Shown piece after piece: positions 32,782 through 62,857 of a DNA stretch of 64,000 bases. The translations under genes and the position numbers were made by a program. Source of the DNA: Pseudobdellovibrionaceae bacterium (lineage in GTDB: Bacteria; Bdellovibrionota; Bdellovibrionia; Bdellovibrionales; UBA1609); the NCBI GenBank assembly GCA_023954155.1, contig JAMLIO010000004.1, positions 436 through 64,435 of the forward strand, in the 5' to 3' direction. Within the stretch, counting starts at the first letter, position 1; each line of letters begins with the position of its first letter. The notes beneath the pieces are model-generated. The model did no database searches and had not been told where the DNA came from. It saw only the letters and a program-made list of their open reading frames with translations.

Positions 32782-32848
32782 ATGAGTAGTTTAAAGTCAA
32801 CTTTGAAACACTCATGAGTAGTTTAAAGTTGACTTTAAACTACTCATG
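32782..32848. repeat. Two tandem palindromic units (operator-like)
   Basis: Unit 2 (32813-32848) is CATGAGTAGTTTAAAGT-TG-ACTTTAAACTACTCATG, a perfect 17+2+17 palindrome. Unit 1 (32782-32815) is ATGAGTAGTTTAAAGT-CAA-CTTTGAAACACTCAT, imperfect. The half-site ATGAGTAGTTTAAAGT repeats with a 32-bp period. Confidence 0.85.
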
Positions 32849-33556: not shown

Positions 33557-34267
33557 TCAGAGATTTAGCTTTCTTATCCTGTCCCATAAAAGAGCTTCGG
33601 GGATATCCATCTTAAGTGCTGACATGCATTCGTTAAGGCGGCCTCGGCGTTCTTTTAAACTTTCTATGGCTTTGGTGAGATCGCTTTTAATGCTTTCCCC
33701 GTAAGCTTGTTGTGCTTTTCTAATGGCTTGATGAAGCTGAGACGAAGGTATTGTAAGCATGGCCAGATCAATAAGGTCTCTGCTAAAAACACTATCGTCT
33801 GACCAACGATCAGAGTTAGCTAGTAGCTTGCTTGTTGCCATATCAAGCGGAGTCAAAGTGGGTACACCACATACAATGTCCTTAGTGTTAGGGGAGTCTA
33901 AAGAGACTCTTCCTTCAAAAATAATTTCAAACTTAATTTCAACATTACCCTGCTTAATCATGGTTCGAATCCCATATTGATCTGTGCGGACGTCACGAGA
34001 TACATTTATCTGTAAACCTTGGCGAATAAGGGGTGAGAGGTCGTTTTTTATTTTAATTAGCTGTCTTAATTTACGATAACCCTCTAAATCCGATATTAAA
34101 AAATCAATATCCACAGATTCGCGATATTCACCATGAGTTAAGACAATCGCAGTTCCGCCACCAAAAAGACACCCATGTGCTCTGAGTGCTTCAGCATCTA
34201 AAGCTTGGAGGACGGTGGCAATTCGTAAATGATGATCTCTTTTAAACAAGCAGTTTCTCCGTACCAA
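33557..34267 (-). CDS. Nucleotidyltransferase AbiEii/AbiGii-family toxin (DUF1814)
   Basis: CLFGGGTAIVLTHGEYRESVDIDFLISD matches the GGTAL...R.S.DIDF motif of AbiEii-type toxins. 26-nt overlap with the upstream HTH gene. Confidence 0.7.
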   Translation of the reverse strand: MVRRNCLFKRDHHLRIATVLQALDAEALRAHGCLFGGGTAIVLTHGEYRESVDIDFLISDLEGYRKLRQLIKIKNDLSPLIRQGLQINVSRDVRTDQYGIRTMIKQGNVEIKFEIIFEGRVSLDSPNTKDIVCGVPTLTPLDMATSKLLANSDRWSDDSVFSRDLIDLAMLTIPSSQLHQAIRKAQQAYGESIKSDLTKAIESLKERRGRLNECMSALKMDIPEALLWDRIRKLNL

Positions 34268-42138: not shown

Positions 42139-43365
42139 ATGACAAATATCCTTCTGCTCGAAAAGATTCATTCCATCGCAAAAACTCATTACGAAGCCCA
42201 CGGTTTTCAAGTGACCGAACACGGTCCGTCTGAAACAGGGGCCCCTTTGGTGGGGCTTCTTAAGGGACAAGATATTGTGGGTTTACGGTCTAAAACTCAG
42301 CTCACTGGCGAGGTCTTACAAGAGTCACCCCATCTATCCGCAGTAGGAGCTTATTGTATAGGCACAAATCAAATCGACTTACAAACTGCATGCAAGTTGG
42401 GAGTCGCCGTATTTAATGCCCCTTTTAGTAACACTCGAAGTGTAGCCGAGATGGTGCTAGCCGAGATCATCTGTCTAGCGAGGGGTTTGTTTGCAAAATC
42501 CCAAAAGATGCACGCAGGAATCTGGGAAAAGTCAGCTGCAGGATCAAATGAAATCCGTGGAAAAGTTTTAGGCATTGTGGGTTATGGCCATATTGGCTCC
42601 CAGGTTGGAATTTTGGCTGAAAGCTTAGGCATGAGAGTGATCTTTTACGATGCCATTAAAAAATTACCCTTAGGAAACGCTGAAGAGATGATGACTTTGG
42701 GGGACGTACTCAGTCGTTCCGATTTTGTCACACTACATGTGCCACTGGATAAAACTACAGAGTGGATGATCGGCGAAAAACAATTTTCCATGATGAAAAA
42801 GGGTGCTGCATTTATCAACGCCAGCCGAGGACATGTCGTGCGTTTAGAGGCTTTAAAAAATGCTTTATTAACAGGGCATATATCAGGTGCTGCGATCGAC
42901 GTTTTCCCAGAAGAGCCCAAAGAAAACAACAGCACCTTTGCCCATGAGTTACAAAATATAGAAAATGTCATCTTAACTCCACACATCGCGGGAAGCACGA
43001 TTGAGGCCCAAGAGTCTATAGGAGTGGAGGTCACAGAAAGCCTGATCCGCTTTATGAAAACGGGCCATTCTGTGGGGGCTGTGAACTTCCCACAACTGTA
43101 TTTATCTGAACTGCAATCTGGCTACAGAATCCTAAACGTTCACAAAAACGTGGCAGGAGTCCTAGGGGAAGTAAATAAAATCTTCTCTCACCACAATATA
43201 AATATCTTAAGCCAACAGCTAAAAACCAACGAACAGATAGGGTATTTAGCGGTAGACGTAGAGGGCGCGGTAGACCCCAAAGTCGTAGATGCAATAGCCC
43301 ATCTGCCCACCTCCATCAAAACCCGCTTTCTTGCCAGCGAAGAGTTAGGTTCTAAATTTATTTGA
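42139..43365 (+). CDS. serA: D-3-phosphoglycerate dehydrogenase with C-terminal ACT domain
   Basis: GIVGYGHIGSQVG NAD-binding block, the catalytic-region block TPHIAGST, and an ACT domain. The last 13 codons lie inside palindromic element A. Confidence 0.9.
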   Translation: MTNILLLEKIHSIAKTHYEAHGFQVTEHGPSETGAPLVGLLKGQDIVGLRSKTQLTGEVLQESPHLSAVGAYCIGTNQIDLQTACKLGVAVFNAPFSNTRSVAEMVLAEIICLARGLFAKSQKMHAGIWEKSAAGSNEIRGKVLGIVGYGHIGSQVGILAESLGMRVIFYDAIKKLPLGNAEEMMTLGDVLSRSDFVTLHVPLDKTTEWMIGEKQFSMMKKGAAFINASRGHVVRLEALKNALLTGHISGAAIDVFPEEPKENNSTFAHELQNIENVILTPHIAGSTIEAQESIGVEVTESLIRFMKTGHSVGAVNFPQLYLSELQSGYRILNVHKNVAGVLGEVNKIFSHHNINILSQQLKTNEQIGYLAVDVEGAVDPKVVDAIAHLPTSIKTRFLASEELGSKFI

Positions 43366-43672
43366 AGTTTAAGTTTTGTCTTTGAATTTTAAGTTTTCTT
43401 AGAGATACATCTATCGAATGGCAGCTCCGAGCGAGCAATGCGTATCCGACTTGCGGCATAACTTTTGAATTGAAGTTTAATTTAAGGGAAGCTCCAAAGA
43501 AGTTTCTCTTAAATTAAACTTCAATTCAAGTTATGACGAAAGCCGAGACGCTTTGCACCCGAGTCGGCCTGTCTGCCATTCGATAGATGTATCTCTAAGA
43601 AAACTTAAAATTCAAAGACAAAACTTAAACTTCAAATAAATTTAGAACCTAACTCTTCGCTGGCAAGAAAGC
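43325..43672. repeat. Palindromic element A: exact 100-bp inverted arms around a 148-nt quasi-palindromic centre
   Basis: 43325-43424 is the exact reverse complement of 43573-43672, verified base by base. Inner near-perfect stem 43457-43486 / 43508-43535. Confidence 0.95.
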
Positions 43673-48412: not shown

Positions 48413-50809
48413 ATGCAGCAGTTTTTTCTTTTAATCTTAGTGTTGCTTTTTGTGCAGGAGGGGTTTTCAAGCTGGGCGGCTCAACCAGCAGTTATTGCTG
48501 GAGTGGTCAGTACAAAAGATAAGAAAGGCCTTCGTTTACGCTCTTGCCCAAACACAAACTGTCCAATATCAGGAGCTCTAAAAGAGGGTAAAACTTATTA
48601 CTTTGAAAATAAAATGCACGGGGAGTGGTATAGAATATTTAATCAATATGCGCACGGTGATTATGTAAAAGTTGATCTTGGATATACAACGCAGGCTAAA
48701 GCCTCTAGAAGAAGTTTTAACGAAAATGTACTTAAAGAAGCTATTGATAAGGCTCTTAACGAGAAGTTTTTCAATGTAAAGCCTATCTCAGATAGTGGAA
48801 AGACAATTGACTCTTTAACTCTAGAAAGAGCAACTGATTTTGTGCAAGTGTATTCCTTTTTGCTCTATGGCCGTAGGCATTATGGTGTCTATGACATGTT
48901 ATCAGAAAATTCAGGCCTTTTGCATTTTACTGATGGCAAAATGGGATATTGTCTTTTAGCGTCCTCAGGTAGGAGTGTAGAAAAATCTCATGGGTTTTCG
49001 TACGATCTTATGACAAAAGACATTGTGGGATCTATAAATGTCAAACTAAAGAAGACATATAGCTTAGATCAGTTTCCATATAAGCATAAAGGATATTCAT
49101 TCTTTGGTAACATTTGTGCTATTGATTTTTTTGATAAAAAAACAGAACAAGATGTTCTTAATAAAGACATCTATGTCAGGGACTTAGGGCGTATATTAAA
49201 ATCTAGGAAATCTTTTTTAATAGATGAAATTGATAAAGTATCAAGTTTTGAAAATAAAAACCTAGTCGACAAAAGTAAAAACGAAATAGAAAAGTATGCT
49301 CCCTTGTTTACATCGCAGCTCAAAGCAGCCTATTTCTATAATATAAATCGATATCAAAATAGAGTATTTGCCTATTATGACAGTGCTAAAAAAGAAAATC
49401 AGATGAAAATCAGTGGCCTGATCAAAGATTTGGATTTGAATATTAAATATAAGTCTTTTGTTATTAAGTTTGATGCGAATACAAGCGGACCAAGAGGAAT
49501 GCAGTATAAAGGTGCGATTTATGCACAAGAAGACATGGAGATAAATCAGATAAAAATATATAAAGGCGAATATGTTGATCTTAATGAGTTGGTAAAGATC
49601 TTATATGTTGGTTCTAAGTACCCAAAATTAAAAGCCAATGTCGAGTTTGGGTTTGCACGCACGATAGATCAAAAAAACTTCAGTGATTTAAAAGGTTTGT
49701 TTTTTGATCTTAAAAATATAAATATTAAAAGTAAGTTATATGCGATTTCTCCGCATTATATTTCATTTTATGATGACGATCATGGAACTTTGGGTTTAGA
49801 GCCCAGAACCTTTAGCGTGACAGAAGAAGTTAGAGCCACAAATTCTAAATACTTTGGGGCTAATAAATTTATGAATCAACGTATAGACTTTGTTGTAGGT
49901 TATAGTCCGTCGGCTAATGAAAAACCTTTAGGTTGCGTAACAACAAATATAAATTATGTAAATCTAGAAAAAGAAATATTGGCTTTGGGTTTATCAGAAG
50001 ATCAGATTATTAAAATTCGTGGTAATGAAGTAGAAATTAGTAAACCACTGGATATATATGGGCTAATACAATTAGCACCTCATTCTAAACTTATTCTAAA
50101 TATATCGGATTGTATGAAGACTATTTTCTTATATCAGGCGATGGCTCAACCAGGAAGCCGTTGGCAAGGGCGTGTCCTAGAGTCTGAAACCCAAGTTTTT
50201 TTTGAAAAAGATAAGGTGGTTAGGATTTTAGATAAGGACGGCGAAAAGGCAGTGTATTCAAAATACACTACCAATATTAATGTAGGTTTCAAGCAAGGAG
50301 TAACCAAATACCCCTTGTGTATTCTAAACAAACTTGCGAAGTATTCACCACTAGAGAGATTAGTTCTAGAACCTTGTGATTATGCATTCAGTGAAGTGAA
50401 GCTGCATGAGATAGAACAAATAGATGCTGAAAAGGGAACTATTACTATTCAAGGTCGTACTTATCGAACTAAAGATATCACTTCGAAATTGACAGCTAGG
50501 ATAGATGAGCAAGAATTTTGGTTGCCCTTTGTTCCTGACCTAAATACGTTGAAATATAAAGATAGAATTCATAATATTATTCGTGAATATTATGTTTTCC
50601 CTTCTGCATGGGTTGGCAGTGACACTAAATTAAGTGGACGTGCAGATTATTGTGGAGATAAGTATGTAGACTGTGAGCCTGATTCACAACAGTCTGAAGG
50701 ACAACAGATCAGAACGATGGATTTTGAGGCATTTAAGAATAAGACCATTATGCTTAAGCTTTACGAAAGTATACCAGATCCTAGTAATTTTTGTGAGGGG
50801 TTCTGTTAG
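48413..50809 (+). CDS. Large secreted protein with N-terminal SH3b-like domain; remainder unknown
   Basis: Signal peptide. GLRLRSCPNTNCPISGALKEGKTYYFENKMHGEWYRIF...GDYV resembles bacterial SH3. About 700 aa have no recognised family. The C-terminal end is Cys-rich. Confidence 0.6.
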   Translation: MQQFFLLILVLLFVQEGFSSWAAQPAVIAGVVSTKDKKGLRLRSCPNTNCPISGALKEGKTYYFENKMHGEWYRIFNQYAHGDYVKVDLGYTTQAKASRRSFNENVLKEAIDKALNEKFFNVKPISDSGKTIDSLTLERATDFVQVYSFLLYGRRHYGVYDMLSENSGLLHFTDGKMGYCLLASSGRSVEKSHGFSYDLMTKDIVGSINVKLKKTYSLDQFPYKHKGYSFFGNICAIDFFDKKTEQDVLNKDIYVRDLGRILKSRKSFLIDEIDKVSSFENKNLVDKSKNEIEKYAPLFTSQLKAAYFYNINRYQNRVFAYYDSAKKENQMKISGLIKDLDLNIKYKSFVIKFDANTSGPRGMQYKGAIYAQEDMEINQIKIYKGEYVDLNELVKILYVGSKYPKLKANVEFGFARTIDQKNFSDLKGLFFDLKNINIKSKLYAISPHYISFYDDDHGTLGLEPRTFSVTEEVRATNSKYFGANKFMNQRIDFVVGYSPSANEKPLGCVTTNINYVNLEKEILALGLSEDQIIKIRGNEVEISKPLDIYGLIQLAPHSKLILNISDCMKTIFLYQAMAQPGSRWQGRVLESETQVFFEKDKVVRILDKDGEKAVYSKYTTNINVGFKQGVTKYPLCILNKLAKYSPLERLVLEPCDYAFSEVKLHEIEQIDAEKGTITIQGRTYRTKDITSKLTARIDEQEFWLPFVPDLNTLKYKDRIHNIIREYYVFPSAWVGSDTKLSGRADYCGDKYVDCEPDSQQSEGQQIRTMDFEAFKNKTIMLKLYESIPDPSNFCEGFC

Positions 50810-51964: not shown

Positions 51965-53794
51965 TTGGCTAAGATTACATCAAGCAGTACAGCCGAATAT
52001 TTTGCAAAGAACCTACAACAGGTGGGGTTTTCGTCAGCGACTAAAGCTGTTTTAACCACTTTAAAAGAAACAGTGGATAACTCATTAGATGCTTGCGAAG
52101 ATCATAAGATTCTACCTGAATTAAAGATTGAAATCGAAAAGATTGGCACTGGGGGTTCCAAAAGTGCGGATTTAATACGCATTATGGTGGAAGATAATGG
52201 CCCAGGGTTATCGCCAGAAGACCTTCCACGTGTATTTGGCGAGTACTTGGCCTCTTCAAAGTTTGGACGTGGTCGCTGTTCTCGTGGTCAGCAGGGGATT
52301 GGTATTTCTGCGGCCACCACATGGGCGCAGCTCACCAATGCCGCTGGGGCCAAGGTTTTAAGTAAAACAAAGAATATGCGTAAAGCCATAGAAATGCGCA
52401 TTGATGTAGATATCAAATCGAATAAAGGTCTAGTGAAAGATAAAAAGACTGTGGATTGGGACAAAGACCATGGTCTTCGTGTGGAGTTTGTGATTGATGG
52501 TCGCTTGCAGCTTAATGGAGATGGTGGGATTTTAACGTATCTTGAAGGAACCTCACTCGTAAACCCGCATTTAAAATTACATTATAAGATCAACGATGAC
52601 ATTGATGTGAACGTGGATCGCGTAACAGAAGACGTTCCTGTGGCTCCGCCAGCAACCTTACCTCATCCTCATACTATGAAATTGGGTGAGTTTATGACCC
52701 ATGCTCATTTATTTGGAAACGTAAACTTGCAGAAATTTTTAAAAACAGGTTTTTCTCGTGTGACTGATAGTACGTTAAGTGACTTTGTTAAAAATGGAAT
52801 GCCTAAAAAATTCTTAGCTCAGCCTATATCAAAAACTTCGGAGTCAGAATTTAAGGATATTTTTAAGGCTATACAAGAAACAGAGCTGCCTAACCCCACC
52901 ACGCGCTCAGTGCTTACCATTGGGGAAGAGGCTTTAGCCAACAGTATTCAACGTTTAGGTGCCATTGACTTTTTTAGTATTGTCACCCGTAAACCTAAAA
53001 TATGTGACTTTAAGCCTGTAGTGGTGGAAGTAGCCATTGCGAGGTTCTTAGATCGTGGGAAGGAAGACGAAAGTATTCAGCTTTTACGTTTTGCTAACCG
53101 TGTGCCTTTACAATTCGATAAGGCAGGATGTGCGATCACTAAAGCTGTGGAGTCCGTCAACTGGCGTTCTTATGGCCTGAACCAGTCCAAAAATAATTTG
53201 CCTTTGGGTCCTTACATTTTTGCGATCAGTGTAACGTCGCCGTTTATTAAGTTTAAAAACGCATCTAAAGAGACCATTGATTCTAGTGATGAATTAGTGG
53301 AAGAGATTCGTCGCGCGCTGATGCAAACAGGGCAAAAGCTTTCAAGACACATTCGTCGAGAAGCTAAAGCTGCGGATTTAGAGCGAAAACTTCAACATAT
53401 TGAAAAGTTTGGACCTATTTTGGTTCGTGGACTTGTGCAGATTGTGGGTGCGGCTGACAAACGTCGCGACAAAGCCACTGAAGGTTTAGAAAAGATATTG
53501 GGACGTGATACCAACGTAGCAGAAAAAGAATTAGAGGTCGCAGAGAGCCGCTTGCAGGATTTAAAACAAAAAGAAGGTTTTGATTCTAGTGGGTCCGAGG
53601 ATTTAGAGTCTTTCACAGAGAGCGAACAGCTGTCCTTAGATTCATCATTCGATAAAGATTCAAGAAAGATGAGCTCAAAACCCAACAAGAAGAAAAGTAA
53701 GACTTCAGGCAAAAAGGCAGTGAAGAAAGCGTCTTCCACAAAGGCCGCTGCAAAAAAAGCATCTAAGAAAGTGGCAGCAAGACCTAAAAAATAA
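51965..53794 (+). CDS. top6B: DNA topoisomerase VI subunit B (GHKL ATPase + transducer) with Lys/Ala-rich C-terminal tail
   Basis: The N-terminus STAEYFAKNLQQVGFSS...LKETVDNSLDACEDHKILPELKIEI parallels archaeal Top6B. Bergerat-fold N box (ExxxNSLDA), G1 (EDNGPGL) and G2 (GQQGIGISAA) are present. TTG start 8 nt after GGAGG. Confidence 0.8.
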   Translation: MAKITSSSTAEYFAKNLQQVGFSSATKAVLTTLKETVDNSLDACEDHKILPELKIEIEKIGTGGSKSADLIRIMVEDNGPGLSPEDLPRVFGEYLASSKFGRGRCSRGQQGIGISAATTWAQLTNAAGAKVLSKTKNMRKAIEMRIDVDIKSNKGLVKDKKTVDWDKDHGLRVEFVIDGRLQLNGDGGILTYLEGTSLVNPHLKLHYKINDDIDVNVDRVTEDVPVAPPATLPHPHTMKLGEFMTHAHLFGNVNLQKFLKTGFSRVTDSTLSDFVKNGMPKKFLAQPISKTSESEFKDIFKAIQETELPNPTTRSVLTIGEEALANSIQRLGAIDFFSIVTRKPKICDFKPVVVEVAIARFLDRGKEDESIQLLRFANRVPLQFDKAGCAITKAVESVNWRSYGLNQSKNNLPLGPYIFAISVTSPFIKFKNASKETIDSSDELVEEIRRALMQTGQKLSRHIRREAKAADLERKLQHIEKFGPILVRGLVQIVGAADKRRDKATEGLEKILGRDTNVAEKELEVAESRLQDLKQKEGFDSSGSEDLESFTESEQLSLDSSFDKDSRKMSSKPNKKKSKTSGKKAVKKASSTKAAAKKASKKVAARPKK

Positions 53795-53811
53795 TTCGGA
53801 GATAAAAAGAT

Positions 53812-54981
53812 ATGGCAAAGGCAAGAGTAGCAGGATCAGGGAATTCACAGAAAGACATCATTTATAAAGCAAAGGCCATCTGTGAGGGCATGTTAAGTGA
53901 TTTAGAAAAGGCCAAGCGCCCTGTCTTGGAATCTATCAAGTGCAGCTTGGACAATTCAGAATACGACCCAAGGCTTGGGTATTTGACTCCAGCGGGAAAG
54001 ATGGTGCGCTCAGAGTTAAATGTGTCTTCAGTGCAAAAATTAGCACGTACAGTGTTTATGTTAGATATTTTACTTAACAACGTAAATACAGGTGGTGTGA
54101 ACACCAAAAGAGAGCTGTACTATATGGCAAAAGGTTTGGTGAAAAGCGATAAAGAGCTTAAACCCATAGACTTTGATGACCAGAATGAAAGTGACTCCAT
54201 TATTGATTTTATCACGGATATGCTTGAGGTGTATCGCGAAGAGATGAATTGTTTTGCGAATGATCGTGGGGGACAAACTTACTCACAACAGCTTGTGGTC
54301 ACTGAAACTTTAAATGATGGAACTAAAGCTGTTATTGACTTGAGCTCATTAGGTACTACCCCTTTTCAGCCCAAGAACAAACCACAGGCCTTAACATTAA
54401 AGGCTAAAAGTAAAATTGATTTTTGTTTGGTTGTAGAATCAGAAGGTACGGCGAACACTCTGGTAAGTAATGGGTTTACCAAAAGAAATAAGTGTATCCT
54501 GATGGGTGCTCAAGGGGTGCCTAGTAACGGGGTCAGAGGTTGGTGTAAATTGATTCAAGATCAGCTTAAGATTCCTATTTATTTCTTCGGAGATCTGGAT
54601 GCGTACACTCTGCAAAATATTTACAGAACTCTTAAAGCAGGATCGGCTGCGAGTTTGATTCGTAACAAAGACTTTTCCGCTCCAGATGTAAAGTTTTTAG
54701 GAGTTTTGCCTGAAGATATTAAAAAATACGACCTTCACTATTATGATGTGAAGTCTAACGATGCTTCTGAAATGCGAGCTCTTAAAAAAGCCAAAGATGT
54801 TCTTGCTAATGACCCCTTTTTCCAGGATGCAAAAAACAAAAAGGTCGCAAGCATTCTTAACTTTTTGATCAAAAATAGAATACGTTGCGAACAGCAAGCG
54901 ATCTTTAGTGTGGATCCCAAGGACCCCATAATGCCCGAGAAGATCATTCTTAAGAAGATCAAAGAAAAGTCTTGGGTGTAA
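53812..54981 (+). CDS. top6A: DNA topoisomerase VI subunit A (Spo11-like)
   Basis: KRELYYMAKG (catalytic Tyr region of the winged-helix 5Y-CAP). Toprim Glu (VVESEGTANTL) and DxD (FFGDLDAYT). Immediately downstream of top6B. Confidence 0.8.
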   Translation: MAKARVAGSGNSQKDIIYKAKAICEGMLSDLEKAKRPVLESIKCSLDNSEYDPRLGYLTPAGKMVRSELNVSSVQKLARTVFMLDILLNNVNTGGVNTKRELYYMAKGLVKSDKELKPIDFDDQNESDSIIDFITDMLEVYREEMNCFANDRGGQTYSQQLVVTETLNDGTKAVIDLSSLGTTPFQPKNKPQALTLKAKSKIDFCLVVESEGTANTLVSNGFTKRNKCILMGAQGVPSNGVRGWCKLIQDQLKIPIYFFGDLDAYTLQNIYRTLKAGSAASLIRNKDFSAPDVKFLGVLPEDIKKYDLHYYDVKSNDASEMRALKKAKDVLANDPFFQDAKNKKVASILNFLIKNRIRCEQQAIFSVDPKDPIMPEKIILKKIKEKSWV

Positions 54982-55146
54982 AACACCTAGAGCGCTTTGG
55001 ATTTTAGGATCAGTGACCAATTTTGGCCCCGTTAGATGGGGTAGGGCGTATTATTTGGTAAATCCTTGATCTTTAAGGATTTATACGGGTTTTGTGTGGT
55101 AATTTTTGGCGTGCTTTTTGCCTCTGAAGGGGTGGAGGAGCACGGG

Positions 55147-57174
55147 ATGAATAAAAAGCTCAACGTTCTTATTTTGTTTTTGATTTCTGGTTTTTGGCTG
55201 GGAACAGGTTGTGCTTTAAACAGTGCTGATGAATCTCCATTGGGTGATCTGCGCGGGGGACAGACTAACGATCCTGATTACAATGTCAGCTTGTGGCCCA
55301 CGCCAGTAGGTGAGGACCCGAATCCCATGCTCATCGGTGAACTTACAGGTTGGCCCAAAATTGAAAAAGACAATACGGTTTTATTTATTGGGGATCAGTC
55401 GCTACAGGGCAACTGGGGTTTGGCTTTACAAAAACTTTTGGTGGAAGACGAAGAAGCTTCTCTGACTTTATCTGGATGTAATGCCACTGCACAGAGTTGG
55501 AAGTCTGGAGCTGAGGCCAGCTGCTTGTACAGTGCACCGTTTGTAAAATACAAAGAAGGTCGACTATTTTTAACTCAAAATTTACAAGCAGGCACAGACC
55601 GTGCGTTACCCTTAATTCTTGCTCACGAGAATGTATCTAAAGTGGTATTAAGTTTTGGGGCTTATTTGAAAGACATCACTGATGCAAAAATTCTTCAGGA
55701 CGAACTTGTGGCTCTCGAAATTTTAGCAAAATGGGCACACAGTGCGGGAAAGACCTGTTACTTTGTCACCCCTGTAGGGGAATACTTTTTAGAATCTGGA
55801 CAGGTCATTTTACCGATTGAACTTTTAGCACGCATGAAAGTACTTTTAGAGCCTTACTGTTATTGGGTGGATGCCGTCGAAGCTCGTAAAACATTTTTAG
55901 ATGCCACACAAATCAATATTGAAGGCAAAATCACCGAGGCAACACCAGATGACAGTGCTGAACCTTATATTCGTATTGATGAAAAACCACCTGTGGATTT
56001 ACCAAAACTGCCACCTCTGGTTTTACCAGACATGTCTTTAGATTTGTCTGAAGTTCCTGAGATCATTGCTGATAAAGAGAGTCCGATTGCGGGTAGACCT
56101 GAGCCACAAGTGCCAGCCAGTGGTGCCACTGAAGTGCCACCTAAAAAAGAAGAACCTGCTACTGTCCCTGCCACTCAGTCAGAAGATCAACACAAAGAAG
56201 ACCCCGCTACGGTTCCTCCTACTAAGCCTGAGGATCAAAAAGGAGAAGATCCTAACACAACACCTCCTGCTCAGGGTTTGGGGACTACTCCTACGGAACC
56301 CACAGATGAGTCTAGTGGTGGTACAGTGATTCTACCTGATGGAGTAAATCAAGAGATTCCCATTCCACAGCCTCGACCAGATCGAGAGGGTGAAAAACCA
56401 CCTGCCACTGCCGAAGACAAACTGGCGGAAGCCTTAGAGGAACTTGGTCCTGAGAATGTTCCTGTGCCTGCACAGAAACCGAAATTTCTAACAGAAAAAG
56501 ATCAACAGGCCATTCGTGATCAAATTGAAACGAAAACTCCATCAGTGGCGCAAAAAGAAAATAAAGTTATTAAATTCCAAGAGCCCAAATATTTATGGAA
56601 TGGATACGCTCAAGGTTCTAATTATACACGTTATGGTAAAATTGAACTTAAGGCTTACGGCGCTCACTTATATCAAACTAAAAACTTAAGTGATGCGACG
56701 ATGTATTGTCCTAATTATTGGAACTTAGGAGAGGAAGATAAGAAGCATGTGTGGATATATCTTTACTCGGCCATGGCACTCTATGAGTCGACTTTTAATG
56801 CAGGCGCAAGAGCTGTCGAAGTGACTGGTGGAACCAGTATGGGGCTATTCCAGATGGACTATAACAACTGTAAACAATCTGCATCTAAAGCGACAGACCT
56901 TTTAAATGCTCAAGTCAATTTCCGTTGTGCCATCAGAAAATCTGTTTACTTGGTCAGAGAAGGAAAACAGATCGCTAATGGTTCCTATCCTTCAAACTGC
57001 AATCAACAAGGCTGCTCATACCGTGGTGGAGCCATGGACAGATTCTGGTCCACTCTCAGAAAACCCTACCAAGCCAAAATCAGAAACAACAAAGGCCAAC
57101 TAGTAAGTGTCACAGTAGGAAAAAGAAATAAAGTTATTTCTCATCTTAAAAGCTTACCTCACTGTAAGAAATAA
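55147..57174 (+). CDS. Lipoprotein with Pro-rich linker and C-terminal lytic transglycosylase (SLT) domain
   Basis: ATG 55147 after GGAGGA. Lipobox LGTGC. Long P/E/T-rich segment. YESTFNAGARAV...GGTSMGLFQM corresponds to the ES...GLMQ motif of family-1 lytic transglycosylases. Confidence 0.7.
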   Translation: MNKKLNVLILFLISGFWLGTGCALNSADESPLGDLRGGQTNDPDYNVSLWPTPVGEDPNPMLIGELTGWPKIEKDNTVLFIGDQSLQGNWGLALQKLLVEDEEASLTLSGCNATAQSWKSGAEASCLYSAPFVKYKEGRLFLTQNLQAGTDRALPLILAHENVSKVVLSFGAYLKDITDAKILQDELVALEILAKWAHSAGKTCYFVTPVGEYFLESGQVILPIELLARMKVLLEPYCYWVDAVEARKTFLDATQINIEGKITEATPDDSAEPYIRIDEKPPVDLPKLPPLVLPDMSLDLSEVPEIIADKESPIAGRPEPQVPASGATEVPPKKEEPATVPATQSEDQHKEDPATVPPTKPEDQKGEDPNTTPPAQGLGTTPTEPTDESSGGTVILPDGVNQEIPIPQPRPDREGEKPPATAEDKLAEALEELGPENVPVPAQKPKFLTEKDQQAIRDQIETKTPSVAQKENKVIKFQEPKYLWNGYAQGSNYTRYGKIELKAYGAHLYQTKNLSDATMYCPNYWNLGEEDKKHVWIYLYSAMALYESTFNAGARAVEVTGGTSMGLFQMDYNNCKQSASKATDLLNAQVNFRCAIRKSVYLVREGKQIANGSYPSNCNQQGCSYRGGAMDRFWSTLRKPYQAKIRNNKGQLVSVTVGKRNKVISHLKSLPHCKK

Positions 57175-57198: not shown

Positions 57199-57357
57199 GT
57201 CCATTCAGGATTTCTAGGTTCAGTTTATAAATATATAGTGTGAAAATGTGAGTTCGGCTTGGCATGCTTTTGCGAACGCAAAATCATGCCAAACGTCACT
57301 GTCTGAGCATTTTTGCACTATATATTTATAAACTGAACCTAGAAATCCTGAATGGAC
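57199..57357. repeat. Palindromic element B: perfect 42-bp arms around a 75-nt conserved core
   Basis: 57199-57240 is the exact reverse complement of 57316-57357. The core (57241-57315) contains hairpin TTGGCATGCTTTTGCG-AA-CGCAAAATCATGCCAA. Confidence 0.95.
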
Positions 57358-57366
57358 TCAAAGTGA

Positions 57367-57963
57367 TTAGCCCGCAGAGGGGAGGATTTCAAAGATGACG
57401 AGGGTGCGGACTTTGGAGCTGCTTTTGACTTCGTAGATTTCAAAGGCTTTGTCATTAAGGATAAGATGATTTTCTAGGGCGGTTTTTAAAATCTTAGGAT
57501 AAATTTTTATAGCTCCTAGTGCAGGCGAACCATCGAAGGCGCCCATAATATAGGAGTTGAATTTGATCTCATCAACTTTATAGTTGTGACTTTCAAATTC
57601 AGGATTTTGAGTCAGGTGTGTGAGGTCGGTTGCGCTTTCTAATAAGCAACCTACATGACTTCTCAGACGATGATGATCTACACCGCTGGGGTTATCTAAA
57701 TAATATCCAAAGGTGCGTGCACAAATAATTCCATGGGCTTTGGCAAACTCTTCCACCTCTGTGATGTGTGGGGCCACTTCGTGATAGGGGCCCACAACTT
57801 CTTTAAATATAATTTTGTGGGGTCCAAAAGGTGTATCGGTAAAGACGTCGACTTGAACAGGCAAGTGGAAGCCTGCTCGAAAGGCGATAAAAACTAGAAG
57901 ACCAATGATACCTAAAAAAAATCCAGCTACTGTGCCAGAAAACCATTTCATAATTGATTCCAA
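57367..57963 (-). CDS. Membrane-anchored GyrI-like / effector-binding-domain protein
   Basis: N-terminal TM helix. The remainder resembles GyrI-like small-molecule-binding domains (GPYHEV...HGIICARTFGYYLDNP). Low certainty. Confidence 0.5.
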   Translation of the reverse strand: MESIMKWFSGTVAGFFLGIIGLLVFIAFRAGFHLPVQVDVFTDTPFGPHKIIFKEVVGPYHEVAPHITEVEEFAKAHGIICARTFGYYLDNPSGVDHHRLRSHVGCLLESATDLTHLTQNPEFESHNYKVDEIKFNSYIMGAFDGSPALGAIKIYPKILKTALENHLILNDKAFEIYEVKSSSKVRTLVIFEILPSAG

Positions 57964-60932: not shown

Positions 60933-62012
60933 GTGATTAAACGTATTGATACCTACATTCTGACAAGCTTTTTGACCTATTTTGCGGTCTCTTTATGTGT
61001 GCTCTTAGTGCTGTTTTTATCTGTGGATTTGATGTCTAGTCTTAATAGATTCGAGGTGGGAGGAACTATCCTGCTTTCGTACTACATCAATTATTTACCT
61101 TGGATCGCTTATCATATGGCCCCCATTTCTGCTTTGTTAGCCATGGTTTTTTTGATGACAAGGCTAGTAAAGTCTAGTGAGCTGACCGCCCTCTTTGCCT
61201 CTGGTTACGGACTTTTTCGTATTATAGGGTCGGTCTTAGTTTTTTTAGTGTTTCTTACAGTAGGAATGTTTTGGTTTGGCGACCAAGTGATGCCAACAGC
61301 CATGGATAAGCGTTATTACATTTATTATGTCGAGATGAAAAAAGACCCTAATCGTTATTCTAAAACTCGTCAGAAGAACATCTGGTACAAAACTGAAGAT
61401 GCCATCATTCATTTTAATGAAATTTTAAGCCCTAATAATGTGGCTGGGGTGCAGTTATTTTTTATTGATCCAGAAAGCTGGATGCTGCAAAGCCATTACG
61501 AAGCCAAAAATCTGACTCTCAAGGATGGGTTTTGGGTTCTGGCTGATGGGCAGAAATCGCAATACGACAAGACCTCAGAAAAGTTTCAGGTGAGCGATTT
61601 CAAAGAGGCTGTGCTGCCTGCAGTAACACAAGTCGAAGACATGCAAGTCAGTGGTGAAGCCACAGAAAACCTAAGTCTGAAGGACCTACGGCATCTGATT
61701 CGACAGAATGAACGCATTGGACTGCAAAACCATGACATTAAGGTGATCTATTGGAGCAAATTTTCTTTTGTCCTCACAGCCTTAATCCTCCCACTCCTAG
61801 GACTCTCCATGACTTCCGTAGATCGCAGAGGAGGCAACGCCTTTTTAGGAGCCTCCATCGGCGGCTTTATGGTTCTTGCTTATTGGATTTTATACAGCTC
61901 CACCTTGTCTATAGGAAAAGCCGGTTTCATCCCACCTTTTGCCGCCGCTTTTATGGTCCCTATGTTAGGCTTTATCTTAATAGCAGCGTTGATTCAAAGA
62001 GTCCTCAAGTGA
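60933..62012 (+). CDS. LptF/LptG-family LPS export permease
   Basis: MIKRIDTYILTSFL... N-terminus and a 6-TM YjgP/YjgQ architecture with a periplasmic beta-jellyroll region. GTG start. Confidence 0.8.
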   Translation: MIKRIDTYILTSFLTYFAVSLCVLLVLFLSVDLMSSLNRFEVGGTILLSYYINYLPWIAYHMAPISALLAMVFLMTRLVKSSELTALFASGYGLFRIIGSVLVFLVFLTVGMFWFGDQVMPTAMDKRYYIYYVEMKKDPNRYSKTRQKNIWYKTEDAIIHFNEILSPNNVAGVQLFFIDPESWMLQSHYEAKNLTLKDGFWVLADGQKSQYDKTSEKFQVSDFKEAVLPAVTQVEDMQVSGEATENLSLKDLRHLIRQNERIGLQNHDIKVIYWSKFSFVLTALILPLLGLSMTSVDRRGGNAFLGASIGGFMVLAYWILYSSTLSIGKAGFIPPFAAAFMVPMLGFILIAALIQRVLK

Positions 62013-62022
62013 GTCAAAAATA

Positions 62023-62246
62023 GTCTTGTCTGTAAAAACCCGCAATGCAGTGTTGCGCCTCCCGTTGGGTCTTTGGGGTTTGTTTTTGATTATATATACT
62101 CAAAATGCTCAGACAGTGACGTTTGGCATTCTTTTGCGTTCGCAAAAGAATGCCAAGCCGAACTCGCATTTCGACCATATATATAATCAAAAACAAACCC
62201 CAAAGACCCAACGGGAGGCTCGCGTGCGGGTTTTTAAAGACAAGAC
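62023..62246. repeat. Palindromic element C: 22-bp outer arms + perfect 42-bp arms around a 79-nt core homologous to element B
   Basis: 62057-62098 is the exact reverse complement of 62178-62219. The outer pair 62023-62044 / 62225-62246 matches 21 of 22. The core hairpin is TTGGCATTCTTTTGCG-TT-CGCAAAAGAATGCCAA. Confidence 0.95.
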
Positions 62247-62272
62247 CCAGTTTTTTTGTTACAACAAAGCCT

Positions 62273-62857
62273 ATGGCAGTATTAGAAGTATTATTATATC
62301 CAGATCCGCGTTTAAGAAGAAAAGCTAAACCTATTGAAGCAGTGACTCCTGAAATCCAAAAGATTGCTGAGGACATGCTTGAGACTATGTACCAGTATAA
62401 AGGTATTGGTCTTGCTGCTACACAAGTCGGTTTAGAAATTCGTATTTTAGTGATTGATACACGTCCTCGTGATGACAAAGATAGATATGAACAAGATGGA
62501 ATGACTGAACTTGAAAAGCAAGTGGCTCAGCCTCTAGTCATTATCAATCCCGAGATTGTGGAACAAAAAGGCGAGTCTACATTTGATGAAGGTTGTTTAA
62601 GTATTCCTGGATATTTTGAAACTGTAAAACGCCCAGAATATGTCGAGATCAATGCCCTGAATGAGAAAGGGGAAAAGATCAATATCAAAACCGATGGGCT
62701 TTTAGCCACTTGTATTCAACATGAGATTGATCATTTGGATGGAAAGCTTTTTATTGATCGTTTAAGTGTGGTTCGTGCCACTCGTTTGAAAAATAAGATC
62801 AAAAAGAATGGTTATCCTGATCCTGATGAAGAGGCGGCAGAGGAAGCTGAAGCTTAG
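62273..62857 (+). CDS. def: Peptide deformylase
   Basis: MAVLEVLLYPDPRLRRKA..., EGCLSIPG, HEIDHLDG. ATG 62273. The ORF track start 62123 lies inside palindromic element C and is spurious. Confidence 0.92.
   Translation: MAVLEVLLYPDPRLRRKAKPIEAVTPEIQKIAEDMLETMYQYKGIGLAATQVGLEIRILVIDTRPRDDKDRYEQDGMTELEKQVAQPLVIINPEIVEQKGESTFDEGCLSIPGYFETVKRPEYVEINALNEKGEKINIKTDGLLATCIQHEIDHLDGKLFIDRLSVVRATRLKNKIKKNGYPDPDEEAAEEAEA

Follow-up and report, generated by a model that had tools for sequence, protein, structure and literature searches.

Among the palindromic intergenic repeats and MITEs of bacteria, the usual role ascribed to the REP/BIME, REPIN, ERIC, Correia/NEMIS, RUP and BOX families is that of making transcripts more stable or insulating them. 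Element B and the related repeats found in the window (i.e. the whole 64-kb stretch of DNA that was analysed) resemble these families in being small (100-350 bp), non-coding, multi-copy and hairpin-forming, and in lying after gene ends, in 3' UTRs. In those families, however, the arms are conserved and the copies are alike from end to end, whereas here it is the centre that is conserved, the arms being specific to each copy, and neither a target-site duplication nor a RAYT or transposase gene is found nearby. The attC sites of integrons are likewise imperfect palindromes (60-140 bp) at gene ends, with a structure rather than a sequence common to their copies. They differ in having conserved outer boxes R''/R' (GTTRRRY), a variable centre, extrahelical bases, cassette arrays and an integrase, whereas B is arranged in the opposite manner and lacks these features. 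An attC site was therefore rejected as a candidate, there being no RYYYAAC ... GTTRRRY outer boxes in B and no integrase or cassette array in the window.

A second group of related systems is of mutational origin. Template switching generates perfect reverse-complement repeats in one event, and it also corrects imperfect inverted repeats, expands them and can invert their spacer (PMC8794818, PMC5941160, PMC8604942, PMC13100816). The quasipalindromes ascribed to this process have in common with the elements described here Watson-Crick arms, a flank overwritten by the reverse complement of the opposite one, and multi-base 'compensatory' changes made in one event; the cases described span mostly a few to ~30 nt and carry no repeated core, in contrast to the 42-100 nt found here around conserved cores, with gene ends overwritten (PMC8794818, PMC5941160, PMC8604942, PMC13100816). 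As far as the accessible part of the source goes, mitochondrial genes of Nematomorpha contain perfect 'coding palindromes' of up to 284 bp, comparable to element A at serA in being long perfect inverted repeats that reach into coding sequence; that part concerns an animal organelle in which both arms are coding, and describes no conserved non-coding core (PMC6649704). On present evidence, B is more than a peculiarity of a single locus, but it is best regarded as a variant of two known kinds of sequence, the palindromic repeats of intergenic regions and the palindromes made by template switching, and not as a category of its own.

The gene content of the window is that of a housekeeping region (a ribosomal protein operon, secY, rpoA, serA, topoisomerase VI, lptG, def and fmt), and its 64 kb yielded no gene for a transposase, a recombinase or a reverse transcriptase. 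The topoisomerase VI subunit B and A genes (Topo-VIb_trans, TP6A_N/Toprim) adjoin each other at 51965-54981 on this bacterial chromosome, a pair that is kept in the relative L028, where it is followed by an HNH-domain gene; a 798-aa ORF at 48413-50809 has no Pfam match at E <= 0.001. Three long perfect inverted repeats are present in the window: A, with 100-nt arms, and B and C, with arms of 42 nt each. Further away, a 66-bp near-perfect palindrome without spacer (33-nt arms, 91%) lies at 32782-32847, in the intergenic gap upstream of an AbiEii toxin-like gene (33557-34267), and perhaps arose from the same tendency to form palindromes.

Element B, of 159 bp and non-coding, consists of the following parts and is flanked by two convergent genes:

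55066..57174, plus strand: upstream convergent gene, a lipoprotein with a weak SLT_3 lysozyme-like match.
57199..57240, no strand: left arm of B, 42 nt, perfect, the exact reverse complement of 57316-57357.
57241..57315, minus strand: asymmetric core of B, 75 nt, scoring 111.9 bits on the minus strand with covariance model R1.
57243..57248 (AAAATG, plus strand) with 57308-57313 (CATTTT): six extra base pairs past a 2-nt mismatch, also present in C.
57250..57258, minus strand: second unpaired core segment, 9 nt, GCCGAACTC on the minus strand, identical in B and C.
57259..57292, no strand: inner hairpin of B, 16 bp with a 2-nt spacer, one mismatch in B, perfect in C.
57293..57307, minus strand: unpaired core segment, 15 nt, CTCAGACAGTGACGT on the minus strand, identical in B and C.
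57316..57357, no strand: right arm of B, 42 nt, perfect, its end lying 9 nt short of the GyrI-like stop codon (57367-57369, minus strand).
57367..57951, minus strand: GyrI-like gene (weak assignment), 194 aa, the last gene of the RR-nadC-birA operon.

The anatomy given for B in a preliminary description, i.e. perfect 42-bp arms around a structured core with a 16-bp hairpin and one A/G mismatch, holds in full. The left arm, GTCCATTCAGGATTTCTAGGTTCAGTTTATAAATATATAGTG on the plus strand, recurs on the minus strand as the right arm, with 0 mismatches, and such a match occurred in 0 of 100 dinucleotide-preserving shuffles. In a repeat search the arms reach 50 nt, with 96% identity (57199-57248 / 57308-57357, with 59 nt between them). 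The element starts with GTCCATT and finishes with AATGGAC, and the single mismatch of the inner hairpin (57259-57274 / 57277-57292) reads C/T on the plus strand and A/G on the minus strand. B folds as a single long hairpin or rod on either strand, at -109.1 and -104.7 kcal/mol (z = -16.6 and -17.9). Three metagenomes of this species, assembled independently (L025, L026 and L027, whose contigs are 99.4-99.9% identical to the window), contain it with 100% identity, and it is therefore real DNA and not an assembly artefact.

B takes up 159 nt of the 192-nt gap between the ORF stops at 57174 (plus strand) and 57367 (minus strand), in agreement with the earlier reading that it fills almost the whole of a convergent junction. 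The names given there to the two genes, SLT lipoprotein and GyrI-like, are more weakly supported: the SLT_3 match of the 55066..57174 protein (E=4.9e-4) is below the Pfam cut-off, and the GyrI-like assignment, at E=0.022 for the window protein, is better in its homologs, the family being matched by 6/6 of them with a best E=4.4e-5. The C-terminus (…SLPHCKK) and stop of the lipoprotein are the same as in L028, and the GyrI-like protein carries a 3-residue C-terminal extension (SAG) with respect to its closest homologs. The bases beyond the arms of B are TCAAAGTG on the plus strand and CACAAGGC on the minus strand. No terminator-like site made of a stem and a T-run was found on either strand between 57000 and 57500, as the preliminary description had noted for the lack of a U-tract, and B alone forms a strong structure in this gap. 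A standard intrinsic (Rho-independent) terminator, with a short G+C-rich stem-loop and a U-tract directly behind it, was therefore rejected as an identity for B.

The closest relative found, L028, in which an adjacent protein is 73% identical and the gene order is unchanged, has gaps of 80 and 81 nt at the junctions where the window has 192 and 236 nt (those of B and C, respectively). These short gaps lack B and C and hold small hairpins; the one matching the junction of B, AAAAAAGCATCTTA-ATAG-ATAAGACGCCTTTTTT between A and T runs, looks from its sequence like an ordinary bidirectional terminator. No long inverted repeat was found in the 20.6 kb of L028 that were analysed, and in L029/L030 the convergent pair of genes overlaps. 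Neither B nor C exists at the corresponding junctions of the closest relative, and both were therefore gained in the lineage of the window. Position and surroundings argue that B has probably replaced, or sits at the expected place of, a bidirectional terminator of the two convergent transcription units.

The relative of B that can be detected in the window is element C, which lies ~4.7 kb away between lptG and def, within an outer pair of arms of its own:

62023..62044, no strand: outer arm of C on the lptG side, an inverted duplicate (21/22) of the def-upstream block 62225-62246, absent in L028 and L031.
62057..62219, plus strand: element C, paralog of B, with perfect 42-nt arms (62057-62098 / 62178-62219) and a core at 62099-62177.
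62225..62246, no strand: outer arm of C on the def side, ancestral host sequence, conserved in L028 and L031 at a fixed register to the start of def.

The cores of the two elements (57244-57313 in B, 62102-62171 in C) are 94% identical over 70 nt and have opposite orientation on the plus strand. The preliminary description had thus been right to expect further copies of the core, along with its account of the anatomy; it had missed, on the other hand, that C is the relative, that the arms diverge and that B is absent from the closest relative. The arms of B and C are barely alike, the best ungapped register giving 21/42 identical positions (p ~0.005 against shuffles) and a gapped alignment ~57%, with the residual similarity concentrated in the AT-rich part adjoining the core. 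Judged by the alignment of the two copies, the pattern is one of a conserved centre with copy-specific arms, the reverse of that of the usual bacterial palindromic repeats. All arm pairs of both elements (42+42), and all 100 of A, are Watson-Crick pairs, with no G·T.

Searches for additional copies with covariance model R1, built on the B/C core, returned only B, C and the L025 copy from 162 kb of window and relatives, and no copy of the core from ~100 kb of relatives' contigs. The core 18-mer GACAGTGACGTTTGGCAT occurs in public genome (6) and metagenome (18) contigs, matches that were put down to chance because the similarity does not go past the 18-mer; three core motifs gave 0, 0 and 11 matches in viral contigs, the 11 being likewise attributed to chance, as R1 finds nothing there. 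Searches against plasmid and phage records with blastn returned no match. The core is present twice in the 64-kb window, so that B, by its sequence, belongs to a small repeat with at least two copies.

Gene annotation around C calls for some care. The longest ORFs run through it, namely 62123-62857, a 244-aa extended 'def', and 62014-62478, a 154-aa antisense ORF, so gene callers could mis-start def within C, the conserved start being the ATG at 62264. L025 and L026 (position 1-40, against window 61920-61956) end at one shared base ~100 nt before C and show three SNPs in their last 40 nt; therefore, as far as these contig ends can tell, the region beyond, toward C, may differ between strains.

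The junction of C is co-directional and unrelated to the convergent junction of B, a finding that bears on the simplest explanation of B, that of a bidirectional terminator evolved in place between convergent genes. B does lie at the site of the terminator-like hairpin with A and T runs of L028, in a gap with no other strong structure, and C is enclosed by a CCCGCA/TGCGGG stem followed by TTTTT. The occurrence of the core at two unrelated junctions is, however, left unexplained by evolution in place, the stem is many times longer than in the terminators observed in the rest of the clade and no U-tract is found on either strand of B, all of which make this origin very improbable.

The comparison of the two cores also invites a reading of B as a selected RNA, either a cis-acting 3'-UTR structure or a small RNA such as a 6S-like rod with a conserved bubble. 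Bubble and hairpin would then be the functional part, and of the closing stem no more than pairing would be required. B and C have both unpaired segments of the core in common with 100% identity, their inner hairpins differ by a compensatory change from G-C to T-A, with the mismatch of B repaired in C, and the fold is extreme (z ~-17). Relative to the gene upstream, the sense of the core is also the same in the two copies (n=2), that gene being the minus-strand GyrI-like operon in the case of B and the plus-strand lptG in the case of C. Rfam 15, searched at E up to 10, nevertheless returned for B only generic long-hairpin models of plant and animal microRNA precursors, all far below threshold (the best scoring 51.8 bits where 140 are required), and no bacterial family, so that membership of an Rfam family, 6S included, was rejected. 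The only promoter match, 9/12 and inside the hairpin, is not convincing and no terminator accompanies it; selected stems normally carry G·U pairs and bulges, of which there are none here in 42 bp. Absence from the closest relative implies that B is not a conserved gene, and two copies are compatible both with selection and with recent copying. We therefore regard a selected RNA as quite improbable.

The same promoter match, a weak sigma-70-like TTGGCA-17-AATCAT in the core, together with perfect inverted repeats around a short asymmetric segment, would suit an invertible DNA switch in which a recombinase flips the core between the repeats. The core has, however, one orientation in the window and in L025, L026 and L027 (four consensus assemblies), it faces two gene ends and no gene start, the match of 9/12 is buried in the hairpin and no invertase or recombinase gene is present in the window, which leaves this possibility scarcely credible. 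By eye, the inner hairpin also contains a sigma-54-like TGGCAT-N4-TTGC, with 9 nt from GG to GC instead of the 10 of the consensus.

The origin of the arms can be approached through the outer layer of C and through element A. The block upstream of def, TTTTTAAAGACAA...GTTTTTTTGTTACA...ATGGCA, is present as a single copy in each of L028 and L031, with its register to the def start kept; the outer arm of C on the lptG side is an inverted copy of the window's own def block and displaces the sequence that relatives have there. Element A, located at the junction of serA with a FAD-oxidase gene, has a more elaborate build:

43325..43672, no strand: element A, a 348-bp nested palindrome that shares the architecture of B and C but has another core; its arms are perfect over 100 nt, its middle layer is imperfect but conserved, and its inner hairpin spans 29 bp.

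The left arm of A begins within serA codon 396 and provides SerA with a novel 10-residue tail. The window SerA is 408 aa long and runs into the arm as ...KTRFLASEELGSKFI, whereas the aligned SerA homologs, of 398-406 aa, end as ...TSIKTR followed mostly by 2-4 residues, and by 7 in one. A kinship of the core of A with that of B and C had been suspected by eye (CAGACAG plus GCCGA(A)CTCG) and was rejected in a shuffle test (p ~0.5); it is C, and not element A as the preliminary description had it, that is the detectable relative of B.

A counterpart of A was found in a second species. Its Logan contigs from the serA side (L038-L040) and from the FAD-oxidase side (L042, L043 and L045) stop in one inward-reading 30-mer, CACCTCACTTATTGAATTGAATTAAAAGTA. 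Logan assemblies are built with k=31, and contigs from both sides stopping in a shared 30-mer are what a perfect inverted repeat leaves behind when, with a length of 30 nt or more, it breaks a k=31 graph assembly. The outer end of the CACCTCACTTATTGAATTGAATTAAAAGTA repeat consists of the last four codons and stop of serA, with the inverted copy beside the FAD-oxidase stop. One contig of that species, L044, reads on through a core ~90% identical to that of A, so that strains may be polymorphic for the palindrome; between the two species the arms show no relationship. In L041, from a 92%-identical lineage, homology to the window stops 48 nt inside the arm of A, and in L047, a relative at a greater distance, the serA/FAD-oxidase junction contains two additional genes and a plain hairpin. 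In the second species the arm (ACTTATTGAATTGAA..TTAA, with the serA stop in it; L044 1609-1650) resembles the central hairpin of A (window 43460-43534; p ~0.004), so that a sequence similar to the A hairpin is placed at the apex in the window and in an outer position in the second species. An ancestral flank accompanied by its own inverted copy, the footprint expected of template switching, is therefore seen for the outer arms of C and for the counterpart of A in the second species.

These observations have to be weighed against the alternative of a classical MITE of ~160 bp, with element-borne 42-bp terminal inverted repeats, B and C being old copies in which hairpin-templated correction keeps arms that drift at the neutral rate paired, and with a core under selection, e.g. 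as a transposase-binding site. B and C are small, non-coding, lineage-specific intergenic insertions, and the exact length of 42 nt of the arms in both, as well as the faint but non-random similarity of their AT-rich parts near the core (21/42, p ~0.005), fits element-borne repeats that have diverged while being kept paired and counts against an origin of the arms from local sequence. The terminal inverted repeats of MITEs are conserved among copies, whereas those of B and C are not, and arms at ~50% against a core at 94% identity would need very different constraints within one 160-bp unit. Neither element is framed by a target-site duplication (flanks ...CCTTGTG / TCAAAGT... for B and ...GTGTTGC / TCGCGTG... 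for C), no transposase is encoded in the 64-kb window, and the arms of A are unrelated in the two species and contain host coding sequence. A classical MITE thus appears unlikely, though it is the principal competing explanation.

On balance, we lean towards B being a copy of a small palindromic repeat family of this Bdellovibrionaceae chromosome, with a conserved asymmetric core and template-switch arms, probably acting as a 3'-end barrier. The heritable, repeated unit would be the asymmetric core of ~70 nt, with its 16-bp hairpin and unpaired flanks of 15 and 9 nt, and the arms would derive from DNA-level copying and not from selection on RNA pairing. Arms that are perfect, devoid of G·T and copy-specific, together with reverse-complement copies of host sequence, point to such copying; in particular, the lack of G·T favours it, since selection on RNA would tolerate G·U. 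During replication the hairpin-prone core could nucleate a fold-back in which the nascent strand briefly templates on itself or on the opposite strand; the template switch would then overwrite one flank with the reverse complement of the other and remove mismatches, and further switching would lengthen the palindrome into adjacent host DNA. The core would persist as an asymmetric 'loop' that fold-back copying leaves untouched, while the arms would be rewritten from local sequence. For the 42-nt arms of B itself, the search for a source in neighbouring coding and intergenic DNA and in diverged relatives yielded only chance matches of 11-13 nt, so their host origin is argued by analogy with the outer layer of C and with A, and it is on these grounds that we infer template switching for them as well.

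With regard to function, the effect of the element is presumably exerted at the RNA level, as a transcript 3'-end hairpin or a barrier to transcription. B would be transcribed at the 3' ends of both convergent transcripts, where its hairpin (~-105 kcal/mol) would most likely serve as a U-tract-less barrier against read-through and 3' exonucleases, substituting for an ordinary terminator. To our knowledge, efficient termination is not known for hairpins lacking a U-tract, and a perfect RNA duplex of 42-50 bp might just as well be cut by RNase III, which would make the transcripts less stable.

It is tempting to speculate further, with more doubt than confidence, that these elements represent 'self-growing palindromes', a class undescribed in bacteria in which a short core triggers repeated fold-back and builds copy-specific arms from host DNA, thereby overwriting terminators, promoter-proximal sequence and last codons, and making terminator-like stems and new C-termini. 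The core would possibly be the binding site of a fork-stalling protein, or a new mobile unit.

Two practical consequences follow for sequence analysis. The same inward-reading k-mer at contig ends across a junction is a cheap detector of palindromes in de Bruijn-graph assemblies, and those who search for RNA structures should bear in mind that perfect 'covariation' of several bases between copies may result from mutation alone and is no evidence of a selected RNA. If the proposed origin is true, the elements would offer a natural case of template switching making palindromes of 40-100 bp, big enough to replace terminators, to rewrite gene 3' ends (10 residues added to SerA, 3 to the GyrI-like protein) and to break short-read assemblies, and the usual logic of repeat elements, with conserved ends and a variable middle, would in this lineage be reversed.
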